Virus record (IMG/VR): IMGVR_UViG_3300030104_003872
Coordinates: 11,291 to 75,290 of that record
Strand: one strand, 5' to 3'
Length of the DNA: 64,000 nucleotides
DNA from: a virus
A program made the position numbers and the translations under genes. Of this stretch, positions 1 through 64,000 are shown piece by piece (the first letter of the stretch is position 1; every line of letters starts with the position of its first letter). Under the pieces are notes generated by a model, which saw only the letters and a program-made list of their open reading frames with translations, did no database searches and was not told the DNA's origin.

Positions 1-6
1 TTTCCA

Positions 7-249
7 TCACATCAACCCATCTATGCCGTATATTGAGGCAATAGTTGCGAGTCCAATTTTCATAAACTTGAATCCTTCGGTTAATATTTGATTAGTAACT
101 GCTTGTGTCTCATAAAGAGCCGCCTGTTGAACATGAAGTGATGCTAGACCATCACCCATCTTCTCAATCAATTCATCATGCTTTTCAACACGTTTTTCTA
201 AGTTTTCAAGCCGTAAATCTTGTACTGCTGGACCTGACGCTCGGCTCAT
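7..249 (-). CDS. small coiled-coil protein with C-terminal hydrophobic helix (holin/XhlA-like membrane protein)
   Basis: Heptad LENLEKRVEKHDELIEKM followed by hydrophobic MKIGLATIASIYGI; last gene of the late block in this window. Confidence 0.4.
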   Translation of the reverse strand: MSRASGPAVQDLRLENLEKRVEKHDELIEKMGDGLASLHVQQAALYETQAVTNQILTEGFKFMKIGLATIASIYGIDGLM

Positions 250-282
250 TAGTGAACAAGAAGTCCAATCCCTGTATGAACC

Positions 283-2342: not shown

Positions 2343-5300
2343 CTAGATGAATCCATGTACTAGCACTACCATTATTAGCAATACAGATAAATGTCCTTGC
2401 CCCACTAGGAGCAATACTATGGGCTTGTCTCCAATTTGTTGAAATGCTACCACCATTAAGGGCAACAGTCTTATTAAAATTGGTATTGTTTAATACAGTA
2501 AATGATACTCCGACAGCACAATTTGACGGTAGAGTAAGATTGTTACCAGTCCAATTTATTACATAACCATCTTGCGTACTTGCGTTTAATGTGGTATTGC
2601 TTGCTACGCCTAGAACAGTCATTCCACCCGACCCAGATGGACCAGTAGGTCCTGTTGGACCGGTCGGTCCTGTGGGACCTGTTGGTCCTGCTGAACCATT
2701 TGACCCATCAGAGCCATCGCTACCGGCAGGTCCAGTAGGACCCGTAGGACCAGTCGGACCCGTAGGTCCCGTAGGTCCTGCTGAACCGTCTGAACCATCA
2801 TCACCGTCTGCTCCCGCAGGACCGGTTGGTCCGGCTGGACCTGTAGAACCTGTGGGTCCAGTTGGTCCTGTAGGACCTGTTGCACCCGCCGGAATACTAA
2901 ACGCAAAGACTTTAGCAGTTGCAGGTCCACTTGCACTCACACCAATAGGTCCTGTGCTTGCGGTCGGTGTTCCAAAACCAGCCGCCGTTCCGGTGGGTCC
3001 AGTTGGACCCGTAGGTCCTGTTCCTCCGTCCGAACCATCGTCTCCATCTGCTCCTGCCGGTCCCGTTGGACCAGTAGGTCCTGTTGGTCCAGTTGCTCCA
3101 TTTGACCCATCACTACCTGCTGGTCCCGAAGGTCCTGTCGGACCAGTAGGTCCCGTTGGACCCGTACTTCCAGTAGGTCCTGATGGTCCGGTTGAACCTG
3201 TTATGTCTGCAATTTCAGACCATGAGCCCGATGCTTTCTTGTAAATCTTATCGTTGCTTGTATTGAAATGAAAGTCTCCGTTTGAACCCCCGCTTGGTGT
3301 TGTATTGCTTGAAGTCCATGTGGCTCCATTAGTACCTGCACTTCCCGTACTTCCTGTCGGACCATTTGGTCCAGTTGGTCCAGTAGGTCCGGTGGGACCA
3401 CTAGGTCCTGTGCTTCCATCATTACCGTCATCTCCGTCTGCCCCTGCTGGACCCGTAGGACCCGCTGCTCCCGTTGGTCCTGTGGGACCGGCCGCTCCTG
3501 TGGGTCCTGTTGGACCAGTAGCACCATCTGACCCTGCACTTCCTTGTGGTCCTGCTGGACCTTGTGGACCCGTTGGACCTGGAGGCCCTGCTGAGCCATC
3601 ACTCCCGTCTGAACCCGAAGGTCCAGTTGGTCCGGTTGGACCGGCCGGTCCAGTAGGTCCTGTACTTCCTGTGTCTCCTTTATCACCTGTTCGGGCAAAG
3701 GTTACGCTTACATCTTCTCCATTTGAAAATGGTGCTGATGCAGAAGAATCTACTGTGCTTACTGTAATATCGAAATAACCACTTTCTTCTGTTAGTGAGG
3801 ATATAGTATGTAATGTAAATTGAGATGAATCGGTTAAGTTAGAAATCTTCACATGGCCTTTAATAGTCGAAGTGGAATCATCTATTGTACGAAGGAATGA
3901 TTGAATGTCTGTTCCATCAAGGTCGCTATCATCAATATAGATTCCAGTTGCTCCGCTTTGTGTTGCGTTATCTAATCTAATCTTTCCTGCTCCGGGGTCA
4001 GATTTTGAAGTGGTTGTGGAAAAATCATACTTAAAAGTTGCTCCACCAAAAGAACCTTGAGCTCCTGTTGGTCCTGTGGGACCTGTTGGTCCTGTATTTC
4101 CTTGACTTCCCGAAGGTCCGCTAGGTCCTGTGGGTCCTGTTGGACCAGTAGGACCTGTACTTCCGTCGCTTCCATCCGAGCCAGCGGCTCCTGTTGGACC
4201 TGGAGGCCCTGCACCCCCACTTGGTCCCGAAGGACCTGTTGGACCGGTAGGTCCTGTGGGTCCGGCACTTCCATCAGAACCGTCTGAACCTGCGGGTCCA
4301 CCCGGTCCAGTTGGACCTGTTGCTCCAGTTGGACCTGCTGGTCCAGTAGGACCAGTTGCTCCTGTACTTCCTGTAATATCTGCTATTTCGCCCCAAGAAC
4401 CGGAAGTCTTTTTGTATATTTTATCATTAGATGTGTTAAAGTGGAAATCACCATTAGAGCCACCCGAAGGTGTGGTGTTTGAAGAAGTCCATGTTGCTCC
4501 ATCACTTCCACTTGGTCCTGTTGGACCGGAAGGTCCCGTACTTCCCTGTGGTCCCGTTGGACCAGAACCTCCTGTTGGACCTGTTGGTCCAGTTGCTCCT
4601 TGAGGACCTGTCGGACCTGCTGGACCGGCCGCTCCTGCATCACCATCTGCTCCTGCTGGACCAGTAGAACCTGAGGGTCCGGTTGGTCCTGCTGAACCTG
4701 CGGGTCCTGTTGGACCTGTCGCTCCATCGTTACCATCTGAACCATCTGAACCACTTGGTCCTGTGGGACCTGGAGGACCTGCTGAGCCTGTACTGCCTGT
4801 GGGTCCGGATGGTCCTGCCGGACCAGTTGGACCACTTGGTCCTGCCGGACCTGTGGCTCCGGTATCACCCTTATCTCCAGTTCTTGCGAATGTAATATAA
4901 ACATCGTCATCATTTGCGAATGGGCTTGATGCAGATGAAGCAACATTGGCTACTGTAACTTTGAAGTAACCTGTTGCATCAACTAGGGAAGCGATAGTAA
5001 ATAATAAGAAATCAGATTGGTCGGACTTCTTACTAATCTTAATATGCCCTTTGATTGTTGAAGTTGAATCATCAATAGTTTGAAGGAAAGAGGATATATC
5101 GTCATTGTTTTTATCGTCATCGTCTATGTAGAGAATAGTAGCAGATGTTTGGGTGCTAAAGTTATTGAATCTGAAATATCCACTACCGGGAGCAGAATCA
5201 GTTGTGTGGCTAGATGTATCATAGTGGAATGTTGCCCCACTAAAAGCACCATCTGGTCCCGTTGGACCCGTTGGACCCGTAGGTCCTGTTGGACCAGTGC

Positions 5301-13302: not shown

Positions 13303-13728
13303 TCACCATCCTGAGTTGTTAGTATTGATAGGCACTAACTCGCCCGCCACAACAACTTTTGCGTGGTCTCCAACGTACATCCCAACTGCGGTTGCACCTG
13401 AGGACTGTGTAGCGTCAACATGACCTGCGGCCGTGTCTGAAAGATAAACTGTTGCACCTAGATTGTAAGTACCTGCGTCTGCTCGCATCCATAGTACTCC
13501 ACCGGAAGGACAGTATGTTACTGTACCTGCCGCAACTAATGCTCCATCCACATCTCGGGATGATTCATCAAGTGAAACTGCAAATGGTGTATCTGCATCA
13601 GCAGAAGTTGTTCCACCTGCAACTGTAAGAGCTCCGCTTGCTACCTTTAGTATGTAACCGCTTGATGCTACTGTCTGTCCGCTCGCTAGTGTTCCTGTTC
13701 TTGTATTACTGTTACCAATGCTACTCAT
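13303..13728 (-). CDS. capsid decoration/cement protein (DUF2190-like)
   Basis: Small G/A/T-rich beta protein just upstream of MCP; GATVYLSDTAAG. Confidence 0.6.
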   Translation of the reverse strand: MSSIGNSNTRTGTLASGQTVASSGYILKVASGALTVAGGTTSADADTPFAVSLDESSRDVDGALVAAGTVTYCPSGGVLWMRADAGTYNLGATVYLSDTAAGHVDATQSSGATAVGMYVGDHAKVVVAGELVPINTNNSGW

Positions 13729-13729: not shown

Positions 13730-15466
13730 TTATCTTTCCTCCGTGAAGTTTAGAATGTCTTTTTGTCCTTGTGATAGGTCTTCGTATCGTGTTGCCCTAT
13801 CATCAGCGGCTCCAAGACCTCTGTTGTATGCACTAACCCATGAATTGAATGCTCTAGCGTAAATGCTTTCAGCAGTCTTTAGGTGTGTACCGTTGAAGTA
13901 GTTAGCCACGAATACGCCGTCATCAGATGCGATAGGGGCTGATGCCTCTACCATTTTTTCTGTTGCCGCCTCAACTGGCTTCATTTCAACAACCTCGGGT
14001 TCGGGGTTAGAAGCCTTCCATGAAGCAATAAGGTTAGTTATTACATCAGCAGACAAAGTTTCGTGTCCCTTTAGTCCGAGGGCAGTCGCGTCCGCAACCA
14101 AAGATTCGCGTACTGCTTCCGCTTTTTCCGCTTCTCTGGCCTCGAACTGCTCAATGGTTGCTTTGCTAAGAATTAACTCTGCTTTCAACGCATCGAGCTC
14201 ATCGTTATTTATTTCAGATACTATTGTCTCGTCTGTCATGTTCAATGCCTCGTTGGCTTGCACTTGAGCCGAACCATACTTAAAGTTAGCGACAGTTGCA
14301 GTTGGTTTTGCCCGCTCTTTAACAGAAACAACCCTCGCCTCGTCGATAGAGGCATCGGGATAAGCAGGGTGATGAACGATAGCCAAATGGTCTAAAGTAA
14401 AGTCACTAGCGAAGAAAGCATATCCTGTTTTCTCCTCATACTTAGTAGGTACTCCGTACCCACCGATAGATACTCCGTACTCTGGTCTTAGCCATAGGCC
14501 GGATTCAAGTGCTTCAAAGAGTTCTTTTCTATGGACTTCTGCTTCATAGGTTACTTTCCAGTACTCTTCTTCTTCTGTTAATTCCGCTCCTGTAACAACA
14601 CCAACAACGGCTTCATCTACGCCACCGTCCATATTCCTTCCGAAACCACCTGCGGTCGCTTTGGGATGATTTAGTGTTAAGTCTATACCTTTTAGTTGCT
14701 CGACAACATTTCTACCTGCTTCTAATCCTAATTCCCAATTGTTTTTGTTTTTACCACTATGGAATGCAATACCTTTAATCATAACAACAGTCTTACCTGT
14801 GGATGCGTTAAGATACAATTTAGATTCGTCAACTGTTAGTTGTATAGCCACATTTACCATTTCATCTTCTGCACAACCACACCCACACGGTCCTTTTGCT
14901 TCTTGGGTTAGTTTATTGACAGGGGTTTTAGACCACATCTTACATGACCAGTAACCTGCTTTAGTTTTATCTTTCTTTTCGGCACAATTATGCCTATCAC
15001 GGAATGCCTTTCTTCTTTTAGGGTCATCACGCTTGATTTCCATGTTTGGGTCACCGAATCGTACTATTACAACACGACCGGACTTGTTCTTGACATATAC
15101 GGCAAACTTTTTATTACCACCCTTTGTTCTGAACGGTTTGTTAAGGGAAACTTTTTTTCCACCATACTCGGCCGCAATATCTTCAAAATATGTTGCTTCT
15201 TCTGATTCTTCCCCCCAATCTTCATATGCAATTGCTTTTTCTTTGCAGTTATCTAATTCTTGACATTCTGCTTCACAACCGCAGTCTGCACTTGCTTTGT
15301 GGTCAGCAGGGGAATGGGCTTTGTCTTGGTCCATAAAGGTGTGTCCTTCATGTGCAACCATGCAAGCATCTTCTGAATGACCTGCAAGTGTGCATCTAGC
15401 CATATATTCATCATGCGTCTCATTATCTACAGGAGTTGGTGGGTTGACACCTTCAGCAGATTTCAT
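13730..15466 (-). CDS. prohead protease-scaffold fusion with an N-terminal basic insert
   Basis: Catalytic-type LTLNHP and GVSIGG, DHLAIVHHPAYPDA; C-terminal coiled coil. Confidence 0.85.
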   Translation of the reverse strand: MKSAEGVNPPTPVDNETHDEYMARCTLAGHSEDACMVAHEGHTFMDQDKAHSPADHKASADCGCEAECQELDNCKEKAIAYEDWGEESEEATYFEDIAAEYGGKKVSLNKPFRTKGGNKKFAVYVKNKSGRVVIVRFGDPNMEIKRDDPKRRKAFRDRHNCAEKKDKTKAGYWSCKMWSKTPVNKLTQEAKGPCGCGCAEDEMVNVAIQLTVDESKLYLNASTGKTVVMIKGIAFHSGKNKNNWELGLEAGRNVVEQLKGIDLTLNHPKATAGGFGRNMDGGVDEAVVGVVTGAELTEEEEYWKVTYEAEVHRKELFEALESGLWLRPEYGVSIGGYGVPTKYEEKTGYAFFASDFTLDHLAIVHHPAYPDASIDEARVVSVKERAKPTATVANFKYGSAQVQANEALNMTDETIVSEINNDELDALKAELILSKATIEQFEAREAEKAEAVRESLVADATALGLKGHETLSADVITNLIASWKASNPEPEVVEMKPVEAATEKMVEASAPIASDDGVFVANYFNGTHLKTAESIYARAFNSWVSAYNRGLGAADDRATRYEDLSQGQKDILNFTEER

Positions 15467-20263: not shown

Positions 20264-20586
20264 CAAACAATGATGCGTCCATAGAGCATATAGACTTATC
20301 TTTATAATGTCACTCCGAAAAAAATTAGAGAAAACTCTCGTAGGCACTAGGCGGAGATATATGGGCTAAATGCGTGATTTATGGCCTTCTATTATATACT
20401 AAGGCCGTATTTCACCATTTGCTGATATCGGATATTGGTGTTGTCCTTCGGGGCTTCGGACGAAAGCATCTGAACATAACAGGCTAGAATTAGCCTTCCG
20501 AATGCTTTGCCGGACACAAGATGGAAGGCGAATGGAATAAACAAACCAATCGGGCAAATAATCAACATCTGAAAGGTGAAGAAGCA

Positions 20587-21024
20587 ATGGCTAAGGCTAA
20601 GGCTAAGGCACTATATCAGATGGATGCGGAAGAAGCGATTGCTTCGTTCAATAGTACCCGTGCTGACAACAGTAAGGGATTGGGCAAAGCAATAGTGCAT
20701 AAGCCCCGAATGCGTAAGGCATCCGGCAGTCATGTTATGATTGTTGATTTGTCTAAACTGCCTAAGGGAAGCACGGTTGAACACCATCTAGGCTTGGCAA
20801 CAAGTAAGGTGAATGGGAAACCTGCTAAATATGCTTGCGTGTGTCTAACACACAATAGAAGCGTACTATGCACAACACGCCATCAGGCAACCTTCGGGGC
20901 AGTCTTTACTGCCCTTAAGGACGCTAGGACACCGAAGCAACTGATTCAGTCTAAGGGATTTACCCTAACTGATGGAATCGGTTGGTGTGATGGTTGTGTG
21001 AAGGCTTCATTAGCATCTGTCTGA
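20587..21024 (+). CDS. C/H-W family protein, copy 1 (putative pre-early Zn-binding protein)
   Basis: AAAGGTGA RBS then ATG 20587; ACVCLTH...TTRHQA...WCDGC; TATA ATTATATACT at 20391. Confidence 0.75.
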   Translation: MAKAKAKALYQMDAEEAIASFNSTRADNSKGLGKAIVHKPRMRKASGSHVMIVDLSKLPKGSTVEHHLGLATSKVNGKPAKYACVCLTHNRSVLCTTRHQATFGAVFTALKDARTPKQLIQSKGFTLTDGIGWCDGCVKASLASV

Positions 21025-21208
21025 AATGTGTCTTGCCACTATTAGGTGAAGTGGGCTTCCGTAATATGCTAGATATGTATGCGTCAATGAACAGTCAATC
21101 AGACTAACCAAACGATACCCAAGATTAGCACCTGTACAGGATGGATTTCAATGGCTATATCCCGCCGTTAAATCCTGTATAGTTTGAAGCCCCTTCCCAC
21201 ACGAAACC

Positions 21209-21361
21209 ATGATTTTGAAAAGGTATTTTATTGAATGGCGTGATGGAACAATAACCGAAATTAGCATTGATGAATTGAAGCGATTAGATGAATCAGGATT
21301 CCCGAAATCCATGCTTAATTTCATGGAATATCGGGCGTTTAGGAAGTGGTTGAAGGATTAG
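21209..21361 (+). CDS. hypothetical protein (50 aa, not in ORF track)
   Basis: MILKRYFIEWRDGTITEISIDELKRL...WLKD*; ends at the terminator hairpin; all Glu codons are GAA. Confidence 0.45.
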   Translation: MILKRYFIEWRDGTITEISIDELKRLDESGFPKSMLNFMEYRAFRKWLKD

Positions 21362-21410
21362 GCCGAAAGGCCACCTTCTTCCCTTTTTTTTGTGTTTTTT
21401 CAGATTTTTT
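21360..21410 (+). terminator. hairpin plus oligo-T terminator
   Basis: GGCC-GAAA-GGCC followed by three T-tracts (T8, T6, T6). Confidence 0.75.
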
Positions 21411-21448
21411 GAATCTACCGCATAAAAGATGGTTAAAGCCTTCGGTCC

Positions 21449-21545
21449 GCCCCTGTGAGAGAACAAAGGTCCGGAGAAAAAAGGTCAGGAGAAAAAGGTC
21501 TGGAGAAAAAGGTCACGCTGACAAAGGTCAGCCCCTGTGAGAGAA
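21449..21545 (+). repeat. iteron-like array: five AAAGGTC between 15-bp direct repeats
   Basis: AAAGGTC at 21465, 21480, 21494, 21508 and 21523; GCCCCTGTGAGAGAA at 21449 and 21531. Confidence 0.85.
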
Positions 21546-21600
21546 AACACGAGACGCCACCCATGATGACGCCTCGCTTACGTTAGTCCTCTGTCTCGAT

Positions 21601-21789
21601 TCAATTCATCTCAACAAGTGTCTGAATTAAGCATTGCTCCAGTTGTTGCGGGGTCATCTCTGCGTTTATGCCGAGGTCTATTGGTGTTCTCACTAGAGTT
21701 GTTATTACACCTTCCTGACGCCCGTCGTCTCCAACGACTGCGTGTTGCACGATTTTCGCGGTCACTTCTCCTATCTTTATTTTTCTCAT
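21601..21789 (-). CDS. hypothetical early protein
   Basis: AGGAGG RBS; TATA at 21838-47. Confidence 0.6.
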   Translation of the reverse strand: MRKIKIGEVTAKIVQHAVVGDDGRQEGVITTLVRTPIDLGINAEMTPQQLEQCLIQTLVEMN

Positions 21790-22047
21790 TTCATTTCCTC
21801 CTATGGGCTTTCCGCCCTACCTCCTCATGGAAGCCATAGTATATATACTTTGTGTATTTACGACCTCCACCTGAGAACTCTTTCTCGGCTCGGGGTGAGG
21901 CCCCCAAAAAGTAGTGTCGGGGAGAGAGAGGCTCGGGGAGAGGCCCTAAAAGACGCTCTCTCGCCCGGTCCGCCCCCGAGTAGGCGTTTGAGTGCGAGTC
22001 GTGATGCCAGACCGCCCCTCCGAGATGTCGTGGCTGAGTCGTACGTT

Positions 22048-22075
22048 TCTCCGGAGACCGCAATGTTTATAACCC
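22048..22075 (+). promoter_or_regulatory. early promoter: TCTC-CG-GAGA palindrome, 8-nt spacer, TTTATAA
   Basis: Same geometry as ten other early promoters. Confidence 0.7.
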
Positions 22076-22112
22076 CCTACCCCTACAGCGAGGTAGGCCA
22101 AGAGGCCGGGAG

Positions 22113-22460
22113 GTGAAAAATCTGGAAACTGAGAATTACTGGGAGAACTGCGAGAGAAAGACAGGAGCGGCGCTCGGAAAGTTGGGAGTCAAGACCGCCA
22201 AGAGTATTGGCGTAAAAGGAGCATGGACTCTAAAATACCGAGGCAAGGCAAAAATACTCGTTGGTTGCATGAGGAGAGTTGAATCCGAGTGGGCTGACAA
22301 GAGTATTCTGAACGAGAAAAAGGACAGAGTTGCTGAGCACGTTACAGTCTGTGAGCACGGAGTGGCAGTTGGAGCATCCACGAGAAAGGTTGCGATAGAG
22401 CTGGCTAAGAAATCCGAGCACTGGTGCGAGAAGTGTGCCGCGAGAACCGCCGTCCTTTGA
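22113..22460 (+). CDS. C/H-W family protein, copy 2
   Basis: GAWTLK.R.KA...VGC and VCEHG...GASTRKVAIELAK..EHWCEKC; start uncertain (GTG 22113 or CTG 22122). Confidence 0.75.
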   Translation: MKNLETENYWENCERKTGAALGKLGVKTAKSIGVKGAWTLKYRGKAKILVGCMRRVESEWADKSILNEKKDRVAEHVTVCEHGVAVGASTRKVAIELAKKSEHWCEKCAARTAVL

Positions 22461-22970
22461 GACGCGACGTAAATCCAATGACCCCCGAAAGGGGCGAGGA
22501 TGTACTCTCTGGGGTCACGACTCTCTAGTATTGAGGCTCGACCCTATTTGCACAAAGGTCGGGGGGTCACGACTCCGCCCCTTCTCGACCCTAAACGCAC
22601 AAAGGTCAGAAGCCTCCGGGTCCGCCCCAGAGAGAGAAGGCTCGATTCTCACTCATCTTAACCCCTAACCCGAGAACTCGAGCGTTTCTCCGTGTGCGGG
22701 CGGGCGAGCGAGTACTCAAATGTATGACATAAAAGGACCCTGAGCCGACGGGTCACGCCCCACGACTCACTGCTCATCACGACACGCATCTCAGGAGAGG
22801 AGCACGTTTTTTTAGTGGGAGCACAGGTCACCAGAGCCCCCCTACTCTACACGAGCGGACCCTAGAAGGCTTGAGCCCCTCAGGAATCTCGTGGGTGATG
22901 AGCTCCGGCAGGTATTTCTCCCACCAGAGCCTTTACGTCATCTCGAATAACTATCTCGGGGATAGAATAC

Positions 22971-23378
22971 TCAGACGCTCGCATCCTTGATGCTCTGTCT
23001 TGATTTCTCACACCAGATGTGAGCCAGTTTGCATAGCTCGATTGCTTTCTTTCTCGATGATGCTCCCATCACTGACCCATAGTCTGTGACCGCAACATGA
23101 GTTGGTGCAACCATCTCGCCATTTACGAGAATGGTCATGCCTTTGGTCGCTTCGGTAACTTGCTCATCCGCGTTCTCCACGAAAATGCAACCGACCCGAC
23201 ATCCAGCCTTCCTTCTCATCTTCAAAGTCCATGCTCCGGCTCTTCCGATGGTTCTCGCAGTCTTGGCTCCGTCCTTGCCGAGATGTGCTCCAGTTGAAAC
23301 TGTTGCTCCATCCCAATACATGGTCGGGGTTTTCTCTGCTTTACTGCTCTTCTTAGTGCTCTTACTAGTTTTGCTCAT
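22971..23378 (-). CDS. C/H-W family protein, copy 3
   Basis: GAWTLKMRRKAGCRVGC and GASSRKKAIELCK..HIWCEKS; clearly paralogous to 22113. Confidence 0.8.
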   Translation of the reverse strand: MSKTSKSTKKSSKAEKTPTMYWDGATVSTGAHLGKDGAKTARTIGRAGAWTLKMRRKAGCRVGCIFVENADEQVTEATKGMTILVNGEMVAPTHVAVTDYGSVMGASSRKKAIELCKLAHIWCEKSRQSIKDASV

Positions 23379-23480
23379 AAAGTTCTCCTCCTTGTCTCCA
23401 ATACGTGTCTCCGAGTCACGGTAAGGTTCTCATTCAATGTCATTCTCATCGTCCGCCCTACATGACCAGATAGAAGTTAT

Positions 23481-23608
23481 AGGATATAAAGTTTTCGGAC
23501 TCTTGAGTTAGACCGCCCTCACCGTGAGAGTAGTGGAGAAGTCGTAATGTTTTCACTCGAGTTGTCGATGCCTACGTAAAAGAGAACAGGGAGGCAATTC
23601 TCCGCCCC
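23481..23608. promoter_or_regulatory. composite intergenic module 1
   Basis: Minus-strand TATA 23481-90, ACTCTTGAGT 23499, ACTCGAGTTGTCGATG 23555, AAAAG 23578, TCCGCCCC 23601. Confidence 0.8.
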
Positions 23609-23612
23609 TGTC

Positions 23613-24041
23613 TCAATCTCTTCTAGTTTGACCATATAGCCGAGATTCAAATGCTTGCTCGGCTTGTTTCTCTAGTCTCTGTACTTCTGCGTGCTCGTCA
23701 ATTTTCTCTAGTACCTCTGCCACATCTTTCTCGGCCTGTCTCTTATTGTATATCTCCCAAACTTTGTCGGTTACGTTTCTCTTAACCATTTCTCCGAAGT
23801 GTCTCCATTGTCCCTCGTTTATGATATCTCTAGTCTTGTCATCAGTCAATGACCCAAGACCCATGTGTGATAATTTCTCCATTAGAGAATCTATTACGAC
23901 CGGACTGTCATGGAGTTTATCGTACTCTATTGAGTATATTTTGTCTATCTCATTTATTGTGAGTACGTCATCGGTATTTCTCCGGAGGTCTAATCTCCAA
24001 CCTCTGCTGAAATAGGTCCATTTTATCTCAGAGTATGACAC
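23613..24041 (-). CDS. hypothetical early protein
   Basis: Lies between modules 1 and 2; GTG start next to the upstream stop. Confidence 0.6.
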   Translation of the reverse strand: MSYSEIKWTYFSRGWRLDLRRNTDDVLTINEIDKIYSIEYDKLHDSPVVIDSLMEKLSHMGLGSLTDDKTRDIINEGQWRHFGEMVKRNVTDKVWEIYNKRQAEKDVAEVLEKIDEHAEVQRLEKQAEQAFESRLYGQTRRD

Positions 24042-24188: not shown

Positions 24189-24242
24189 TTCTCTATTTCA
24201 CCTTTCCTCGGCCTTCCGGCCTACTCTGAGGATGGAAGTCAT

Positions 24243-24346: not shown

Positions 24347-24382
24347 AACTCTACCGCGTGAGGCAAAGGGGGTATCTCGCAA

Positions 24383-25195: not shown

Positions 25196-25213
25196 TTCAT
25201 TGTATTCTCTTGA

Positions 25214-25570: not shown

Positions 25571-25589
25571 GTAGAGGTATAGGGGTTCT

Positions 25590-29820: not shown

Positions 29821-29821
29821 T

Positions 29822-42325: not shown

Positions 42326-42895
42326 ATGGATGAATGGGCGGAATATGAACTTTATCAGATTGAGCTCAATGATTACATGAATAAATTGGAGGAACAATAT
42401 ATGGAACAAGAAAAAGAATACGACAGCATAGAATGGAATCACGAAGCATGGGCTGAAAGGGACGAAGGAGCCTACAGCATCGTGGCGGTGATGGCCGGAG
42501 CAATAATGGAAAAAGGACAAGAACATCACTTTGTAGAGATGGTTCGTAACTTAGGTGCAAAGCATGAGCCACTATTGATAGGACAATCAGTTACACTTCC
42601 TGACCTAGAAGATAGAGACCACCCACTTCCAGAGACAGGTGGAAGGCATGATTTGTTTTTCGCATTTCATAACCTAGATATTGCTAGAGTTGCAGTACCT
42701 AGACTTATGTATGGTATTAGGTGGTGGTCAGATGTTGTGGATAATGAATGGAATCATATGTCCCTAGAGAATAAAGCAAACTACCGCGAACACACTATAT
42801 ATCCCGAATATGTATTTGAGACTTGCGGGTTTGGTGAAAATGAAGTTGCTGAGTTTTGGAATAATCCTTCACCTGTAAGGAGTGAAGAAGAGTGA
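42326..42895 (+). CDS. hypothetical phage protein
   Basis: TGGRHDLFF...RL.YGIRWW.DV. Confidence 0.55.
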   Translation: MDEWAEYELYQIELNDYMNKLEEQYMEQEKEYDSIEWNHEAWAERDEGAYSIVAVMAGAIMEKGQEHHFVEMVRNLGAKHEPLLIGQSVTLPDLEDRDHPLPETGGRHDLFFAFHNLDIARVAVPRLMYGIRWWSDVVDNEWNHMSLENKANYREHTIYPEYVFETCGFGENEVAEFWNNPSPVRSEEE

Positions 42896-43384: not shown

Positions 43385-44050
43385 ATGGGAGTAATAATTT
43401 ATGCGGGTGATGATAAGGATTTCAAGAACGGAGACCATATAGTAATGTATGGTGAAATGACTTCTCCCCCTACTGCACCTAACACAACATATATTCTTCA
43501 TTGTGAATCATTCCCCCTATCTATGGCTAAAGAATGGGCTAATTTAGTAACATATAGGCTAGTTGTGATACCTAGAAAGGGTATTAGGGGCATTCGTGAA
43601 GGGGATAATATTCTAATCCACAAATCGGCTAAAACGGCTAAAAATAACTATAATTCACCAATCAATGCTATGATGAAGTGGTCAGACCGCAACAGGGCAT
43701 GGAAGGCTATGAAACCTGTCCCATTTGCTTTAGCAGAGGCATTTCATAAAGTAAATAGACCGAATGGTATAGAAGAGCAAAGGATAATCAGCAAAGCCCG
43801 CTATCAGATGGAAGAAGAATATGCAAAGGCGGCTCTTGTATTCGGAACAGAAGCGATTCACAGTCATGTCTCATGGCCTAAGAAGAAAGCAGACGAAAAT
43901 GATACAATCCCCTTTGGGTTCAGGTCTACTGATGTGTATGCTGATATGATAGTACAACACGCCCCCGAAGTACGAAATAAACTTAGAGCGATTGACCAAG
44001 CACCTTCTAGTATCAAGAAAACAAAGGAGTCATTGTTAGAATGGCTTTGA
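43385..44050 (+). CDS. putative clamp-loader accessory (degenerate RFC large subunit-like) with a C-terminal PIP-like motif
   Basis: Ends KTKESLLEWL*; lies near RFC small; AAGGAG RBS. Confidence 0.4.
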   Translation: MGVIIYAGDDKDFKNGDHIVMYGEMTSPPTAPNTTYILHCESFPLSMAKEWANLVTYRLVVIPRKGIRGIREGDNILIHKSAKTAKNNYNSPINAMMKWSDRNRAWKAMKPVPFALAEAFHKVNRPNGIEEQRIISKARYQMEEEYAKAALVFGTEAIHSHVSWPKKKADENDTIPFGFRSTDVYADMIVQHAPEVRNKLRAIDQAPSSIKKTKESLLEWL

Positions 44051-48342: not shown

Positions 48343-49170
48343 ATGTTAGTCAAGGCAAGCAACATGAAAAAGTTACTAGAAGTAACTGCGAGAAAACAAT
48401 TTGTAAATGGAAAACCTCAACAACAGGTAATAGGTTGTGTATTAAGAGGAACTCAGATGGATGAAGTAAGCACAACGAGTTTAGTTCGTGATGGTAAAAC
48501 ATCTATCGCACAGTTCTCAACTGTATGCGACTGGAAAGATGATGAACAGGCTATTGTTATCCCCGACATTGATAGAACACTAGGAGTTCTTTCAGCACAC
48601 AACGGAGATATAACTATGACGCAAGATGGTGGCTCATTAAGAATAAAGAGCAAAGGCAAGCAAACAACCATTGTTGCAGAGCCCGGTAGTTTAGCATTTC
48701 CTCACACACAAGAAACTATTGCTGAGTGGGAAAGTAAATCACTAACCCTTTCTGAGCAAGTCAATGAAGATGCAGGTTCTTACAAAATGCGAGATGGTTC
48801 TGACAGAAAAGCATTCTTTATGGCTGAGACTTCTGCGTCTATACTTCACGAGGCTTTGAAGGCTGATAACATGAACTCGCAGAAACTTAACCAATACACA
48901 TTCAGATATGACGGTCAAAATGTTCTATATGTTCAGACTGGTACTGACCTAAAAGGACAGACAGAAACAATACTGAACGACGATTGTCAGCAACAGGTTG
49001 AATCTTTCGAGGCAACTTATGAAGGTGGGCTTGAGCAAATACTATCACACTATGACGGTATGGTCAAACTATACTTCTTAGACTTCCGACCAGAAGGACA
49101 GGGTATCAGACTAATTGTTAGTTTTGATAACGGAGATTGGGTTTTCCAAGCGTGCGTTCTAAAGAGGTGA
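48343..49170 (+). CDS. DNA sliding clamp (PCNA-like)
   Basis: 275 aa with a two-domain alpha/beta pattern; same module as RFC and PolB; leaderless after CTTATAAG. Confidence 0.65.
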   Translation: MLVKASNMKKLLEVTARKQFVNGKPQQQVIGCVLRGTQMDEVSTTSLVRDGKTSIAQFSTVCDWKDDEQAIVIPDIDRTLGVLSAHNGDITMTQDGGSLRIKSKGKQTTIVAEPGSLAFPHTQETIAEWESKSLTLSEQVNEDAGSYKMRDGSDRKAFFMAETSASILHEALKADNMNSQKLNQYTFRYDGQNVLYVQTGTDLKGQTETILNDDCQQQVESFEATYEGGLEQILSHYDGMVKLYFLDFRPEGQGIRLIVSFDNGDWVFQACVLKR

Positions 49171-52385: not shown

Positions 52386-54587
52386 ATGATAGTGGATGGC
52401 TTAGGTGGAAGAAGGGTTGCAGTCAGGTATCGTGACCCAGTTACACTTGACCGGAAGCAAGATATTATTAATGATATTTACCCATACGCATTTATTAGTG
52501 ATGTTGATGCTGACCTTATTCCGGCAGTAAAGAAAGAAAGTGGATTCACTGGTCTGTATGGTGAAAATATTACCAAGATTACACTTGCTGACCCTTACGA
52601 AACTTCACAACTAAAGAATACATTTTCTCAGACATGGGAATGTAATATCCCCTTCACTAACAGAGTACTTATTGACAATGGTAAGCATTATGATTTCTAT
52701 AAGCATCGTGTGTGGTACGTTGACCTTGAATGGAATGAAAGGGAAGAAGTAACAGTTGCGACTGTCTATGATAATTACATGGGGAAGTATCTAACGTGGT
52801 TTGTATCACCGCCCGGTCAAACTCACCCACCATTGGTAAATAAATTAGGAGATAAAACATTCAATCCCCCACTAAAAGCATTCAAGACCGAAAAGGAATT
52901 ACTCGATGACTTCTTCCATGTGATGATGAAGAAGGACCCCGATGTATTGACAGGTTGGTTCTTCATGGGTGCTGATATGCGAGTCCTGTTTGATGCTTGT
53001 AAGAGACATGGTTGGAATGCAGGTAAGCGTATGAGCCCGCATGGTTCTGTTCGTTATCAGTTTGACGACTATTCACAATGTATCAAGGGCAGAATTACTA
53101 TTGACCTTATGACTGTATTTTGCAGACTATGGCGTGTAAAGAACGGACAACTACCAGGTCAAAGCCTAAAAGATGTATCGCAGTTTGTTCTTGATAATGA
53201 AGAAAAGATGGACCTAGCAGACGGGCATGATACATACTATACCGACTTAGGGACATATATTGACTATAACATACAAGACGTTGCTTTGCTACCTAAATTG
53301 GATAAGATGCTTAACTGTATCGACCACTTCCTTAACCTTCAACATATTGTTCAATGTGATTTCATTACCACTCCTTGGGTCACAAGATTAGCAACCATTC
53401 TTCTTCTAAGGGATGAGAAGTTTGATAGAAGGATTCCAAGTAAGCCACAGTTTGCTTATGAGGATTATCAAGGGGCAGATATACAGGAAGCGGTAGCAGG
53501 TTTGTATGAAAGAGTTGCTATCATGGATATAAGAGCAATGTATCATAGTAACATTCTGAAATACAATATCTCATGGGAAACTATACTTGATGAAAAGAAT
53601 GGAGTGTTTGATACTGACGCACCAACAGGGGCATTAGGCCGTGCTATGGACCTACTTACAAATCTAAGGAATGAGTACAAGGCTAATATGAAGGCTTCGA
53701 CAACCAAAGAAGAAAAGACTAAATGGGATTCGGCTCAATACGCCACGAAGTCGCTAGTGGCTTCCCTGTATGGAGTCTGTGGTGATAGCCGATTCGGTAT
53801 GTATCACCCTGCGGTAGCGGCGGCTATTACTCGCACATCAAGAAATACGCTTGGTGAATTACGAGACAAGTGTATAGAATGGGGTTGTGATGTTATCTAT
53901 GGTCATACTGATTCTGTTTTCGTTACCGTTGAATCCCCCGAAGCAGGTATGGAGATGGTTGATTGGATTAATAAAGAAATGGCTCCAATAGAAACTGAGT
54001 TTGAAAAGTATTGTGAGCGTATGTTGCTTAAGGCTAAGAATAGGTACGCAGGTAAGGTCACATGGACTGATGGTGAATATCACGAACCCGACTATTATGT
54101 CAAGGGGATAGAATCTAAACAGGCTAGAATGCCTCAGGTAATGAAGGATGCTATGAATACTACAATAAACTCTATGCTTGATGGTAAATCTGAACAATGG
54201 GTCAATGATAAAGTGTGCAGTATTATTCACGATATGGTAGATGGTAATATCCCACTTGACGAGTTGAAGCAGAAAGGAAAACTAAAGAAGGACCTAAAAG
54301 ATTATAGAACAATAGGAGGTTCGGCCGCAGGAGCATTGTGGGCTAATACAAACTTGGGGAAGGAATATAGAAAGGGAAGTTATTTCTGGGTCTTACTTGA
54401 TTCAAGCGGAAGGTTTATAGCGTTTGACTCAGTGGAAGAACTACCAAGTAACATTGCGATAGGCTATGAGGTGATGATTCAACGATACATAATAGAAAAG
54501 GTCAAACCTTTTTATGAAATAGCATCGTGGGAAATGAGCCAATTACATGACGCAAAGAAAGGAAGAAAAGCAGTAGAGTGGTTATAA
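52386..54587 (+). CDS. polB: family B DNA polymerase
   Basis: Exonuclease VDLE and YNIQD; polymerase DIRAMYHS, KSLVASLYG, YGHTDS, KNRY and VKGIE; ends VEWL*. Confidence 0.95.
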   Translation: MIVDGLGGRRVAVRYRDPVTLDRKQDIINDIYPYAFISDVDADLIPAVKKESGFTGLYGENITKITLADPYETSQLKNTFSQTWECNIPFTNRVLIDNGKHYDFYKHRVWYVDLEWNEREEVTVATVYDNYMGKYLTWFVSPPGQTHPPLVNKLGDKTFNPPLKAFKTEKELLDDFFHVMMKKDPDVLTGWFFMGADMRVLFDACKRHGWNAGKRMSPHGSVRYQFDDYSQCIKGRITIDLMTVFCRLWRVKNGQLPGQSLKDVSQFVLDNEEKMDLADGHDTYYTDLGTYIDYNIQDVALLPKLDKMLNCIDHFLNLQHIVQCDFITTPWVTRLATILLLRDEKFDRRIPSKPQFAYEDYQGADIQEAVAGLYERVAIMDIRAMYHSNILKYNISWETILDEKNGVFDTDAPTGALGRAMDLLTNLRNEYKANMKASTTKEEKTKWDSAQYATKSLVASLYGVCGDSRFGMYHPAVAAAITRTSRNTLGELRDKCIEWGCDVIYGHTDSVFVTVESPEAGMEMVDWINKEMAPIETEFEKYCERMLLKAKNRYAGKVTWTDGEYHEPDYYVKGIESKQARMPQVMKDAMNTTINSMLDGKSEQWVNDKVCSIIHDMVDGNIPLDELKQKGKLKKDLKDYRTIGGSAAGALWANTNLGKEYRKGSYFWVLLDSSGRFIAFDSVEELPSNIAIGYEVMIQRYIIEKVKPFYEIASWEMSQLHDAKKGRKAVEWL

Positions 54588-57226: not shown

Positions 57227-57748
57227 ATGGTCATGTCCGAACTTCCCCGTGAATATCTCATAGTGGATGATAGAGAAAATGATAAGATAATTCATAAGTT
57301 AATAATGAGTCTTGGTGATGCTAAAACAGACCCAGATGGTAAGGTATTTGTAACTCGTCTTAAGACAGGGGATTATATCATAGATGATTGGATTATAGAG
57401 GCCAAAGAAATAAAAGATTTGTCAGCGTCAATAATAGGACAGGGACGTTCAAGAACAATAGCGGCTCAATTAAGGGATATGAATACTTTTGCTTTACTAG
57501 AAGGAAAGATACCTTATCTCGTTGTGTATGGAGAAACAAAAGACCTTAAACCATTTTTCGCCAAAGGAACAAAGGGTGGTAAGCAAAATGCGGTCATCCA
57601 AAAGGCTAGAATGAAAAGTAGGATAGCAAGTTTCAAAAAGAGCTTTCTTTTCAGATTTCCCGCTACCAGATATTTTGAATTAGAAACATTACAGGATTAT
57701 GTCGATTGGTTAATAGAAGCATACAAACAAAAGATTGTGCTCAAGTAA
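57227..57748 (+). CDS. ERCC4/XPF-Mus81-type nuclease
   Basis: IVDDRE, LKTGDY, IEAK...DL..SI...R...QL..M. Confidence 0.85.
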   Translation: MVMSELPREYLIVDDRENDKIIHKLIMSLGDAKTDPDGKVFVTRLKTGDYIIDDWIIEAKEIKDLSASIIGQGRSRTIAAQLRDMNTFALLEGKIPYLVVYGETKDLKPFFAKGTKGGKQNAVIQKARMKSRIASFKKSFLFRFPATRYFELETLQDYVDWLIEAYKQKIVLK

Positions 57749-60700: not shown

Positions 60701-63700
60701 AGAGCCTTACTGCGTTACTGCTAATTGATTCGTCATATTGAGATACAAAGCATCCACCCATTCTATATGTGAATATATCTAAATTATCACTATCTGCTTT
60801 GAACTCCATAATACCTGTACCTTTTAGGTCTGGGAAATAACTTCCTTCGTAATTCTTAGAAGAATCTAAAACCATAAGAGGTTTTTTGTCTAAATCTTCC
60901 ACTAATCTACTTTCATATCTAACATAGAATTGGAAATTAGGGTCATAAGGATGACGATACTTTGCAGTATATGGGTGAGGACCTGCTTGCCACCAATAAT
61001 TATCCATAAGTTTTGCTTCACCTGCTACACTAAAGTCATACTCGCCTATTGTTTTTACACCACCAGAGGATTGTCCTATACGACCGTTGTTAGTCATAGT
61101 ATTTAGATTGAAAAACTTACTAGCGTCAATAGCCATAGGTGCTCCTGCTTTTGATTCCCAATTATGCAGATAGGTCATGTTAGTCATAGTATTACTATAA
61201 TTACCTGACCAAGCAGAACCACTATAAGGGTCAAGATTAGTCAAATCCCACATATCTATGTCAGTTCCTATTGCGAGCTCTGCTATATCTTCTTGTGTTT
61301 CTGAAAATACTACCGATACCTTGTATTGTTCTTCTAGTGGATATAAAAGACCCCAGTTAGTTTGTCTCCCGCCACCATCTGCGTCTGCTGAACCATCGTT
61401 TCTCATATCAGCCCAATTAAGCCAAATGTGATTGAAATTATTTTTGATTTTTCTGAACCTTCCTTTTGCACCAATAGCATGACTATTCTTAAGAAACTTT
61501 ACTCCATTCATTTGAACATCACCTGCATATAGTTTGCATATAGTTGGTCCGTTTTGTGTTGCACCGCCAGTTAGACCCGGATTATCAACAGGACTACCAG
61601 TTCCCTTTACTAATTTCCACTTCCAACCTTGAAATCCTCCACTTACTGCATTTTCTGTTGTTTGACCCATAGCAACAGGATGCCTGTTACTTGTGATAGT
61701 GTGGTCGCAATAAGCATATTCGGCGGGGAATATAGTAATAGTTGAATGGTCGGCCGCTTTTTCAAGAACCCTGTACCACCTGTAAGATACTAAATCTCTA
61801 TCTTCACCGTAAGGATTTTCCACGTTATAGTGAGCATCAACACTAGTTGTTACGGGTTGCGATACTGACCCTTGTGTGTTTCCTAAGAATATAACATCAC
61901 CAACAGATATAGACTGGAACATTCTTGAACCGCTTACTGCTGAATCACTACCACTATGAAACCAATCTGGGTCTTTTCTCTTTACTGTGTCAAATCTTGT
62001 TTTGTTAGTTGTAAGATATTGTGAGGCATTTTGAGCCGCAGTTATAGTTATTGGACCCGGACTTATAGTGTTTGCTCCTTCACTACTCATTACCCATTCA
62101 CCAGTATTAGGGTCTATAATATTTAGTATTTCTGTTTGAGACATAGCAACAATTTCCCAATGTGTATAATCATCATCTGACTTATCTAAACAAGTATTCA
62201 TAACTGCTGAACGAGCAACCCCCACATCAACTGTCCCATCTTCATTATCAATTTCAAATATTAGACCACCATTGTTCATAAACCGCTTTGAAGAATGTGC
62301 GTTAGCCCTAGAAGGAATGCTTATTGTTGGGTCTGTTCCTATGTCATATTCCGTACTTCCCTTGTCTATATATCTCCTATCTTTGAAGTTTTCATCAATA
62401 AGCGGTACTGTTGCGTTTGATAAAGTTAAAGTAGTGCTAGTACCTACCGTGTATGGTGCTGTTAAGGTAAAGTACTCGCTATATTGTGTCGTGTAAGGGC
62501 TTATATCGTCATATTCAAAGTGTTGGAATCTCCACCCAACATCAGTAGAAGTTCCTGAACCATGTATCGTAGTTATTCTATTACCTTTTCTTGCTAATAC
62601 ATTTTTTCCGGGTCCATGAAGCCCGTGTGCGTCGGGTTCTATAATACCAAATACCATCCTAAACCATAATGACGAGGCTATATCGTGAATATAAGAAGCG
62701 TGTGCAACCCTATATCTTGAATCACTTTCTCTTCCCGAAGGTGGGGTAAATATTGCTTGACAATTACTAATGACGGGGAATAAGAATGTTCTGAATGAAT
62801 TACTAGACCCACCATTTATAAGTTGTTGTATTGTGCTTGTTCCTTCTTGTAAAATAGTACATCCTGTTAGTTTATCATTAGCCACATCCACGCCACGCCA
62901 TCTGATGAATCCCTGAGCAGAACCTCCTGGTCCAACAGTACCCCAACCAGTAGCAGGTAGTAAATCAACAATACCCCCTGTACCTATTGTCAATTCAATT
63001 TCATTACCTGTTCCGCTTAGTGCGGTTACTTTATACTCTACACTATTAGGCCTCATAAATGCTTTTGAAGCAGACTTCATGTGATGTACGCTAGTGCTCC
63101 AAGATTCATTTACATTTAGAAGTGGTAATTGACTAGGGTCTTGTTGGTCTATATCATTTCCTCTAACAACCATACTTAATTCTGTATCTTCGTTACCTAA
63201 CCAATAGTTTCCGCTAATAGAAGAAAAGCCAAACTCTGTTTTCCTAAACTTTTTCATGTAATCAACAATTGACAAAATCTGACTTCTATGTGTAGAGCCT
63301 ATTGTTCCTATGTATTCTAAGGCAAATCTGTAATTGTATTGGTCATCAGCACTAGGTAATTGTCTGCCGTCATAGAAATTAAACATAGGTCCTACCGTAA
63401 CTAAACCATGTGGGTCATTAATATATTTTATACTTGAGTTTTTCAAGGGGATTATTCCGGCAGGTTTGAATGAATACTGACTATAACCTCGCCAATCAGT
63501 TGCAGATTCAGTCCCGTGAGTATCTAATGCGGTGGAAAAGTCTTTACCCCATGTGTTATGAATAATAGAATCTGGACTCACACTATCTGTAAACTGGTCC
63601 CATGTAACGGCACTCGCGGCCTGTAAAGCACCTACCCCGTGGTCTTTTTCATAGAAATCATGTCTTGTATAATAAGCACTCCATTGCCTTCCGTCTATTG

Positions 63701-64000
63701 CAGTAATTTTTCCTAGTGTATCTGAATGATGTTGTCCTACCGGCATAAGTCCTCGTGCTGATGTTTCAACAAAGTTTCCTTGAGTCCAACCAGTATAAGC
63801 ATAAGGGCTTGAACTTCCAAAATTAAAACCTAAACCTAAATCGTCTGGATGCCTTGTTACAACAGAATAAAAATGACCTGTTTCATCTTTTAAATGTCCG
63901 AATATAGCACCAACAGTATTTTTGTATTCAAAACAGAAGTGGTGATTATCTATTATTTTCTTAACGACAATATCTAAACCATTCTTACCGTCACCTGTTA
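57741..64000 (-). CDS. very large virion/tail protein (5' end outside the window)
   Basis: Frame stays open from the track's ATG at 63746 to the window edge; contains tail-hub-like NGKFEFRP, FTHVRVFY and WRPGTVV; Gly/Pro-rich linker near the C-terminus. Confidence 0.7.
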   Translation of the reverse strand, partial: TGDGKNGLDIVVKKIIDNHHFCFEYKNTVGAIFGHLKDETGHFYSVVTRHPDDLGLGFNFGSSSPYAYTGWTQGNFVETSARGLMPVGQHHSDTLGKITAIDGRQWSAYYTRHDFYEKDHGVGALQAASAVTWDQFTDSVSPDSIIHNTWGKDFSTALDTHGTESATDWRGYSQYSFKPAGIIPLKNSSIKYINDPHGLVTVGPMFNFYDGRQLPSADDQYNYRFALEYIGTIGSTHRSQILSIVDYMKKFRKTEFGFSSISGNYWLGNEDTELSMVVRGNDIDQQDPSQLPLLNVNESWSTSVHHMKSASKAFMRPNSVEYKVTALSGTGNEIELTIGTGGIVDLLPATGWGTVGPGGSAQGFIRWRGVDVANDKLTGCTILQEGTSTIQQLINGGSSNSFRTFLFPVISNCQAIFTPPSGRESDSRYRVAHASYIHDIASSLWFRMVFGIIEPDAHGLHGPGKNVLARKGNRITTIHGSGTSTDVGWRFQHFEYDDISPYTTQYSEYFTLTAPYTVGTSTTLTLSNATVPLIDENFKDRRYIDKGSTEYDIGTDPTISIPSRANAHSSKRFMNNGGLIFEIDNEDGTVDVGVARSAVMNTCLDKSDDDYTHWEIVAMSQTEILNIIDPNTGEWVMSSEGANTISPGPITITAAQNASQYLTTNKTRFDTVKRKDPDWFHSGSDSAVSGSRMFQSISVGDVIFLGNTQGSVSQPVTTSVDAHYNVENPYGEDRDLVSYRWYRVLEKAADHSTITIFPAEYAYCDHTITSNRHPVAMGQTTENAVSGGFQGWKWKLVKGTGSPVDNPGLTGGATQNGPTICKLYAGDVQMNGVKFLKNSHAIGAKGRFRKIKNNFNHIWLNWADMRNDGSADADGGGRQTNWGLLYPLEEQYKVSVVFSETQEDIAELAIGTDIDMWDLTNLDPYSGSAWSGNYSNTMTNMTYLHNWESKAGAPMAIDASKFFNLNTMTNNGRIGQSSGGVKTIGEYDFSVAGEAKLMDNYWWQAGPHPYTAKYRHPYDPNFQFYVRYESRLVEDLDKKPLMVLDSSKNYEGSYFPDLKGTGIMEFKADSDNLDIFTYRMGGCFVSQYDESISSNAVRLYINLGTNKVDYSNVSVQDPMGESMALTTLNNNISESPSNKEHAIHGTWSSLMSLSAMLSMEGYVKSPECGSFYEHDKIRLLFQTHGVKSWLAGSDICTSYDIQNVPITYDMPTDSFGSVVDVRASTTFKALMSIQQASGQGVNGNYNAFNYMVGRNGKFEFRPSYDSGEALDRNLLRESETKTQARAQFTHVRVFYNSGESFVDYPTPILDGSQIKFRIVNSPNTRTSASAEALALKELESTKDKNVQVKAELIGGTDSRSPMFDGGLYGYISTPLIQCLSDLGSAANWGAFDPHGNMTGQIIGGRQNAMDGNLMATNANLIGAQRGMEYIQAGNGYHGGGGCNTYDTHATQWYGQYTPYGIHCIEKAVQIVHIPRNTPKVSSGSGQKLRMFITHKSNTANDAVFRLWLVDSHFDSQRRQGYTGNNPLTSSKISYLDITKNGFHEVPFPTSYGATSGAKMIVSFNKEYCVDLLKYRSNNTNTSKSNKGNRVTTIPSTDVSVLDLTTGSSVNEASAFPLGLSLYHRPAGSEDARGRQGPVWQLRPRALYYAPTVEIVDDMVWRPGTVVSYNDSHLNINQDLTLVEIGWTLKERDSDKVSLTLMKDESQFRLPRGLGGGGGGSDTPPATGNPPNNGGGGLPGGGIGDIPYLPGDDIGWAPGWGGLKPPSKGGIGTGHSVTEKTSKQNRLSNISGAPAQESLGGRMTGGKVSLSKMSGGAMNTMKGKADLSSENEEGGLLGITRNRGSVKNNIKTTSKEAIGQSKTTSSGSAIIGADGFILPGVSALLESGAPVQSDYHEGSVTITVPPSVVNERIKVTANIKAPLTGGNTTYTLFATLECIESGHKQSKVINITYSDTAQRVTLFSIRKVKGSSVLGNRIKITIGRVPGGGLMASADGSDNAPYSSLTIKGIEVSFNEQAQNKELGKTSTTRKLESKDRTKGWMSGTDNAWKSKTSDATFDSSGNVSYDSRGKSGSNAIKKDEEDSLT

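Follow-up and report, generated by a model that had tools for sequence, protein, structure and literature searches.

Surviving restriction sites in an uncultured marine virus point to a possible DNA mark at the three-base word GAG/CTC

The uncultured virus recorded as IMGVR_UViG_3300030104_003872 in IMG/VR has purged its genome of a set of short, mostly palindromic words, and the few copies that survive tend to lie against the triplet GAG or its complement, CTC. We analysed a window of 64,000 nucleotides (bases 11,291–75,290 of the record) together with the whole record, a 75,290-bp contig whose two ends overlap and which is probably the complete genome. A shield tied to the word GAG/CTC is well supported as the best explanation of the surviving sites, and we put at roughly 55% the probability of the full account given here, in which the virus covalently marks its own DNA at this word. 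As to the critical position within the triplet, the statistics point, rather than to the adenine, to the base pair in which the 3′ G of GAG faces the 5′ C of CTC. Two adjoining genes are candidates for making the mark: P0001, a ParB-fused amino-methyltransferase, and P0002, which has the predicted fold of an aminoacyl-tRNA transferase. A first-pass annotation of the window had proposed that a modification in GAG, probably on the adenine, protects the restriction sites that overlap it. The word-linked shield stood up for AGCT, GCWGC, GCGC, CASTG and a set of hexamers; a single GAG proved insufficient for AGCT, and the placement on adenine was not supported.

Depletion was measured over the whole 75.3-kb genome against 200 synonymous-codon shuffles that preserve every protein and the codon usage. 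GATC, expected 240 ± 11 times, is absent from the window, as the annotation had reported, and from the genome. The aspartate codon GAT is used 920 times before A, G or T and never before C (0/170), which bears out the remark that aspartate is always written GAC in that position. AGCT occurs 12 times against 240 ± 12 expected, a figure in keeping with the ‘couple of hundred’ estimated earlier from base composition. GCGC (2 versus 85 expected), CCWGG (9 versus 60), GCWGC (3 versus 61) and CASTG (20 versus 96) are similarly scarce, and besides these short words 11 hexamers stand at zero. The k-mer count against a Markov model that the annotation had called for agrees: at maximal order, no other tetramer is as depleted as GATC, AGCT and GCGC (z from −8.6 to −14), and CCWGG, GCWGC and CASTG are likewise strongly depleted. 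The purged words thus fall far below composition, Markov and codon-preserving nulls, the pattern of restriction-site avoidance.

Every one of the 12 AGCT copies in the genome reads GAGCT or AGCTC (P = 1.7 × 10−5), and 8 are flanked on both sides, as GAGCTC (P(≥8/12) = 6 × 10−9). Eleven lie in the window (Table 1), including two GAGCTC copies at 4060 and 13630 that the first-pass count of nine had missed; its statement that all of them overlap GAG or CTC holds for the full set. The twelfth, a GAGCTT, lies beyond the window. The hexamer GAGCTC is itself undepleted (8 versus 10.6 ± 3.0 in the codon shuffle), whereas AGCT with a single flank is reduced to 4 copies from about 85 expected. The survivors fall in all three codon phases and at two intergenic spots, which rules out a codon-pair artefact. 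Survivors of the purged words are enriched for GAG/CTC contact, with p from 10−3 to 10−8, as against little or no enrichment (p = 0.014 to 1) for the non-purged control words GTAC, TCGA, CATG, TGCA and CCGG of the same genome. Both GCGC copies, at 22170 (GGCGCTC) and 29502 (in GAGCGCTC), overlap CTC/GAG as had been observed by eye. Seven CCWGG survivors abut GAG/CTC out of nine, where six of eight had been seen, although in an arrangement that our model does not explain (see below).

Relatives were found via the methyltransferase, the polymerase and P0002, and nine non-redundant genomes (334 kb) were pooled as a clade. In this pool GAGCTC occurs 39 times against 58 expected, AGCT with one flank 11 times against 421 (that is, 97% purged) and unflanked AGCT not at all against 763. 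All relatives lack GATC, and their AGCT copies are only GAGCTC or one-sided forms. Most GAGCTC copies lie at non-orthologous positions among relatives that are 70–85% identical in DNA, and are therefore largely independent events. The purged set itself varies among the close relatives compared (G001, G002, G003, G005 and G011, from loci L015–L025, L010 and L053–L055; methyltransferase 88–95% identical). G001 lacks GTAC (0/232, with 234 in G000) and GCWGC (0/71); G002 lacks ACGT (0/192), CTAG (0/192) and CCWGG (0); G003 lacks CGCG (0/43); and GCGC is at normal frequency in four of the five. The variable purges look like host-specific restriction pressure and the constant exemption of GAGCTC like a property of the virus: because the shield stays constant while the other purged words differ, it appears to travel with the virus. 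In a distant group (L032–L044; PolB 28% identical; 89 kb of unique sequence), AGCT is again absent (0 versus 282 expected), as are GATC, ACGT, CCWGG and CGCG. There GAGCTC has gone too, with none found against 8.9 expected (P = 1.4 × 10−4), which, as neither candidate gene was found in the partial contigs of this group, counts in favour of a virus-written mark.

The contexts of the survivors show which word rescues and how it must lie. Among the short purged words, all 50 surviving AGCT sites occur as GAGCT, 10 of 12 GCWGC sites as GAGCWGC and 8 of 28 CASTG sites as GAGCASTG (null about 0.025), and 2 of 9 GCGC sites have GAG at the fixed offset. Hexamers behave in the same way. Among those of six genomes that are at or below 15% of expectation and contain none of the short purged words, GA precedes 24 of the 66 survivor ends that begin with G (36%), as against 5.9% in non-purged control words (p = 2 × 10−13). 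The base that follows the first G of a rescued site may be G, A or T, as in GAGGATAC, GAGAATTC, GAGATATC, GAGTATAC, GAGTAAAC and GAGGAACC. Survivors flanked on both sides include GAGGATACTC (this genome, 25614), GAGTATACTC and GAGTACTC (a GTAC site), each the only copy in its genome or contig. Stratification showed that the flank effect does not simply follow from a GAG-rich region of the genome: it holds both within that region (11/20 versus 11%) and outside it (12/41 versus 4.9%).

The mirror arrangement, in which a site ending in G is followed by AG, has no effect (2/31, against 6.0% in controls). In both arrangements the adenine of GAG is the immediate neighbour of the site, and only one orientation rescues; the critical position is therefore the G:C pair at the 3′ end of GAG (the 5′ end of CTC), and the counts make it a more likely seat of the shield than the adenine favoured by the first-pass annotation. 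CAGCT gives no rescue. Two narrower motifs, GAGC with its C inside the site and a palindromic methylase specific for GAGCTC, were dropped: in the sites first looked at the C is there by necessity, and rescue works equally well for hexamers that begin with GG, GA or GT.

Read on the other strand, the rescued sites take the forms AG-C*-TC, GTA-C*-TC and GCWG-C*-TC. The marked base, C*, would be the very cytosine that cognate archaeal methyltransferases modify in AGCT and GTAC (AGm4CT and GTAm4C, where m4C is N4-methylcytosine; PMC10609329) and in GCWGC (the second C, by M.ApeKI; PMC8557920). GATC can be flanked in the same way, as GATCTC, yet it is never rescued (0 versus 6.8 expected at AGCT rates, P about 0.001). 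The earlier suggestion that GATC goes unprotected because its adenine can never lie inside GAG thus fails, as an overlap with the triplet is possible; the absence of rescue is consistent with a pressure on GATC that acts by recognition of its adenine. As a general method, the footprint of a shield can be read from the flanks of the sites that survive a purge.

No methyltransferase other than P0001 was found in the genome; neither a C5-cytosine methyltransferase (PF00145) nor a Dam-type methyltransferase gave a match in the complete genome. In P0001, motif I (LDPFCGGS) precedes motif IV, which reads FSCPPY rather than (D/N/S)PPY, a variant kept in essentially all the family members retrieved, in a family of thousands of homologues at about 60% identity. 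The protein scores 39.8 bits against PF01555 (gathering cut-off 26.7), although just residues 246–376 are matched, over profile positions 2–112, and it matches phrog_498 at 4 × 10−80. Searching the PDB by sequence yielded no useful relatives of P0001 or P0002, and no close solved relative of P0001. A cultured phage with a homologue of P0001, Mae-JY30, is uninformative on specificity, with 66% G+C, AGCT unpurged and several methyltransferases.

The AlphaFold2 model of P0002 (predicted local-distance difference test, pLDDT, 90.1) is a tandem GNAT. Foldseek places it closest to the DUF2156 structure 2hqy (E = 6 × 10−13, template-modelling (TM) scores 0.72/0.77), followed by FemX, A-PGS/L-PGS, MprF and Sbb17; the matches thus include the MprF C-terminal domain and peptide synthases that depend on tRNA. 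The match to PF09924 is below threshold (24.3 bits, cut-off 27.5), and several homologues carry a precomputed PF09924 match. On this confident model, P0002 has the fold of tandem GNATs of the aminoacyl-tRNA-transferase kind. A scan of a collection of genome contigs with the P0002 alignment gave no match. P0001 and P0002 adjoin in all 11 loci that have enough upstream sequence, with P0002 down to 40% identity. Both end in the tetrapeptide [LV]EWL, which also closes two otherwise unrelated proteins, the family B DNA polymerase and the product of the open reading frame (ORF) at 43385; the four tails are written with different codons. The shared tail suggests a docking peptide for a common partner at the replication fork, possibly the gp45-like protein encoded at 48343, which we offer as a lead only.

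In the mechanism that we propose, the virus would write a covalent mark at the three-base word GAG/CTC, on the C:G pair that joins the first base of CTC to the last base of GAG, most likely as a substituent on N4 of that cytosine. A site would be tolerated when the marked pair forms its outer base pair, and AGCT would be fully tolerated only with the mark on both strands, as in GAGCTC. Sites left unshielded would be removed by selection from host nucleases that differ between hosts. The mark would probably be made at the replication fork by P0001, and its obligate neighbour, P0002, may elaborate it. A more specific version is possible but doubtful: that marine archaeal viruses possess in P0001 and P0002 a two-enzyme system of DNA hypermodification, tethered to the replisome, in which the amino-methyltransferase-like P0001 would select and flip the target base in GAG/CTC and the FemX/DUF2156-type P0002 would load an amino acid from a charged tRNA onto its exocyclic amine. 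If true, tRNA-dependent modification of DNA would have been invented independently a second time, after Mu Mom, here for a 3-nucleotide target. The proposed mark is predicted from the sequence record of an uncultured clade with some precision, down to motif, position, the need for both strands at AGCT and two candidate genes. If confirmed, the mark would have an unusually short target of 3 nucleotides, and its makers could prove to be a new pairing tethered to the replisome, in which a methyltransferase is joined by a protein of aminoacyl-tRNA-transferase fold.

Several observations weigh against a virus-written mark of this form. The CCWGG survivors occur as CCWGGAG (7/9), with the 5′ G of GAG inside the site, which the model leaves unexplained; the same arrangement brings no rescue for other words. 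With a flank on one side only, AGCT and GTAC have been removed almost completely, whereas GCWGC and the hexamers persist fairly often, and the model thus has to allow for enzymes that are unequally sensitive to a mark on a single strand. A contig at 50% G+C (VTLG01004064.1, locus L063) carries intact P0001 and P0002 and no GAGCTC where 5 are expected, either by chance or because this lineage has a non-working shield. In the distant group, where GAGCTC is lost, neither P0001 nor P0002 was found, in contigs just 23–42% complete, so that the absence of the genes is unproven. The P0001 family, moreover, has its thousands of members in phages of many hosts, and the nearest folds to P0001 are generic class I amino-methyltransferases, including RNA N2-methylguanosine (m2G) enzymes.

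The mark could instead be a bulky hypermodification of the GAG adenine, made by P0002 in the manner of Mom and blocking enzymes whose sites contain or abut that base. Phage Mu Mom makes 6-NcmdA in SAS motifs (S = C/G) by transferring glycine from charged Gly-tRNA onto adenine N6 (PMC13219725), and so offers a precedent for a viral, tRNA-dependent adenine modification at a 3-nucleotide motif that includes GAG and gives broad evasion of restriction. P0002 belongs by predicted fold to the same GNAT superfamily as Mom, its model resembles aminoacyl-tRNA transferases such as FemX and the MprF C-terminal domain, its tail is the same as that of PolB, and in the CCWGGAG and TCCGGAG survivors the adenine adjoins or lies within the site. 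We nevertheless hold this reading unlikely. The adenine adjoins the site in both orientations and only one of them rescues (24/66 versus 2/31, controls at 6% in both), and it lies outside the recognition sequence in most rescued classes; with CAGCT unrescued as well, the site statistics do not place the modified base at the adenine of S-A-S. Mom is also a single GNAT with a helix-turn-helix-like insertion that acts alone, whereas P0002 has a tandem GNAT fold of the DUF2156/FemX type and always lies beside an amino-methyltransferase, in a virus whose host is presumably archaeal; no similarity to Mom was found, although none was specifically tested for.

Readings without a virus-written mark at GAG/CTC fare less well. 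Occlusion of the nucleases by a viral or host protein bound at GAG/CTC, or by DNA shape, would be in keeping with signs that the triplet acts as a functional DNA word, namely a 3-fold excess over 16 kb next to a 1.1-kb gap, conserved in a relative. It would need stoichiometric cover of about 2,000 sites per genome, present on the incoming DNA. A base mark better fits a rescue that depends strictly on one end of the triplet and at AGCT requires both strands, and a conserved methyltransferase gene is present; we consider occlusion quite improbable. Flank preferences do exist among enzymes, and several survivors, including the three GCTGCTC copies in collagen-like repeats, sit in repeats, which might mean that host nucleases cut poorly beside GA/TC or that the surviving words are functionally required. 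Against this, the same flank recurs on more than a dozen unrelated words, the distant group keeps no GAGCTC under the same AGCT purge, and the positions of GAGCTC change from one relative to the next and include every codon phase as well as intergenic DNA; we consider this idea improbable too. Ordinary 6-bp methylation of GAGCTC, of the SacI type, would account for the 39 of 50 AGCT survivors that have this form if the other associations were due to chance. Bacillus phage rho11s methylates GAGCTC. The multispecific C5-methyltransferases of Bacillus phages that methylate this hexamer differ from the present case in that PF00145 has no counterpart here; nor can such methylation explain the GCWGC, CASTG and hexamer survivors or the 11 one-sided AGCT copies set against none unflanked, and we regard it as barely credible.

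Other systems share parts of the pattern. Some archaeal virus genomes lack GATC, CTAG and AGCT completely, and where such a word is present, the virus tends to encode a methyltransferase for it (PMC7230728; PMC8651126). Such purging, set against self-methylation in HF1-group haloviruses and in a survey of archaeal tailed viruses (arTVs), is like the purge described here. What differs is that the exempt word here is a 3-nucleotide word and not a restriction site, that it rescues many different sites by overlap and that it does so only with a particular end of the triplet inside the site; we found no published description of a 3-nucleotide word that rescues diverse sites in this way. The marine bacterial enzyme M.MspCM1200mP10I, which makes m4C in CTCC, blocks ScaI at GGAGTACTCC (PMC8919816). 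There too a palindromic site is protected by cytosine-N4 marks in a short, non-palindromic motif on either side, but the enzyme is a bacterial orphan whose effect was shown in vitro, whereas we infer a mark from the evolutionary record, with a 3-nucleotide motif and a candidate enzyme. The post-replicative T-dioxygenases of phages prefer NTC or CTC and include a ParB-dependent subclass (PMC13229309). They resemble the proposed system as phage post-replicative modification in 2–3-nucleotide contexts that include CTC, in some cases with ParB-like partners; they differ in that their target T pairs with the central A, which the asymmetry test disfavours, and no dioxygenase was found here.

This DNA comes, in our reading, from an uncultured tailed virus that infects a marine archaeon. 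The window encodes a portal, a terminase, a tail tube and tape-measure-like proteins together with a family B DNA polymerase, an RFC-like clamp loader, an ERCC4/XPF nuclease and an ArdC-like anti-restriction protein, thus combining the genes of a tailed virus with replication genes of archaeal/eukaryotic type. A DNA search against cultured phages gave no match, the best matches of the polymerase among cultured viruses are haloarchaeal tailed viruses (22–23% identity), and all public sequencing runs that bear the sequence, as assembled contigs, are marine metagenomes. One homologue of P0002 is located on a metagenome-assembled genome (MAG) labelled Euryarchaeota, which together with the 38–50% G+C of the clade makes Marine Group II a better fit as host than thaumarchaea. 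Viral tRNA genes were looked for in the genome and none was found.

Persistent orphan methyltransferases for GATC (N6-methyladenine, m6A) and AGCT (m4C) are found throughout the Nitrososphaerota and also in Methanomicrobiales (PMC10609329; PMC8919816), and theirs are the two words purged without exception here and in the distant group. Across marine archaeal MAGs GATC is methylated, and AGCT is weakly modified in Poseidoniia (PMC8919816; PMC10609329; PMC6329791). The orphan enzymes are host-encoded and have no known cognate nuclease; in Haloferax, Mrr attacks methylated GATC. Thaumarchaeal methyltransferases that vary by strain recognise GCWGC, CCWGG, GGCC and GTAC, and their words match the variable purges among the relatives. 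The total loss of GATC and AGCT in marine archaeal viruses is thereby linked to two words that marine archaea universally methylate.

Table 1 Surviving sites, regions and genes in the window (positions are those of the window)
Feature	Position	Strand	Comment
AGCT in GAGCTC	4059..4064	.	Exhaustive count and context
AGCT in GAGCTC	13629..13634	.	Exhaustive count and context
AGCT in GAGCTC	14195..14200	.	Exhaustive count and context
AGCT, one-sided	22398..22403	.	GAGCTG; context
AGCT in GAGCTC	22900..22905	.	Intergenic; context
AGCT, one-sided	23034..23039	.	TAGCTC; context
AGCT in GAGCTC	28990..28995	.	Context
CCAGG then GAGCTC	29191..29200	.	CCAGGAGCTC; surviving CCWGG and AGCT have one GAG in common
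AGCT in GAGCTC	42362..42367	.	Context
AGCT, one-sided	57640..57645	.	GAGCTT; context
AGCT in GAGCTC	61275..61280	.	Context
GCGC then TC	22170..22175	.	GCGCTC, wider context GGCGCTC
GCGC flanked on both sides	29500..29507	.	GAGCGCTC; context
GCWGC as GCTGCTC	3464..3470	.	Collagen-like repeat; further copies 7127-7133, 9824-9830
GGATAC/GTATCC	25614..25623	.	Sole genome copy, flanked on both sides, GAGTATCCTC
GAATTC	25000..25007	.	Sole copy, as GAATTCTC
GATATC	23823..23830	.	One of two copies, as GATATCTC
CASTG	22416..22423	.	Survivor, as GAGCACTG
CASTG, two more flanked copies	22768-22775, 24858-24865		Survivors, CACTGCTC
CCWGG as CCWGGAG	3578, 4199, 4769, 29191, 49724, 58363, 62926		Survivors; 5/7 are CCWGGAGG
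GAG/CTC-dense region	21457..38000	.	About 16 kb; 3-fold excess on both strands and in all codon phases; presumed early region
Gap without GAG or CTC	20354..21457	.	1,103 bp; adjoins the dense region
P0001	49370..50548	+	ParB-like N-terminal domain and amino-methyltransferase; tail VEWL; candidate writer
P0002	50539..51501	+	Tandem GNAT, predicted DUF2156/FemX/MprF-C fold; tail VEWL; start overlaps P0001 stop codon
Family B DNA polymerase	52386..54587	+	C terminus AVEWL
Protein of unknown function	43385..44050	+	C terminus LLEWL
Possible sliding clamp	48343..49170	+	gp45-type by language-model similarity only; lead only
ArdC-like anti-restriction domain fused to zincin peptidase	33512-34744	+	Within the GAG-rich region
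Nucleoside 2-deoxyribosyltransferase-family gene	51851-52354	+	Between P0002 and polB

Within the dense region GAG makes up 64% of glutamate codons, against 25% elsewhere, and CTC 22% of leucine codons, against 4%, with other G-ending codons unshifted. The dense region and the adjoining gap both recur in the relative G001. A collagen-like ORF of 1,811 amino acids with Gly-X-Y repeats, probably a tail fibre, occupies positions 2335-7770 of the window on the minus strand and contains repeated GGACCTGGAGG and GCTGCTCC units; three of the seven CCWGGAG survivors sit in collagen-like repeats. Finally, the BbsI-type word GAAGAC survives 11 times in the whole genome against 41 expected, and all 11 copies are followed by C, a sign, perhaps, of a second context rule that is independent of GAG.

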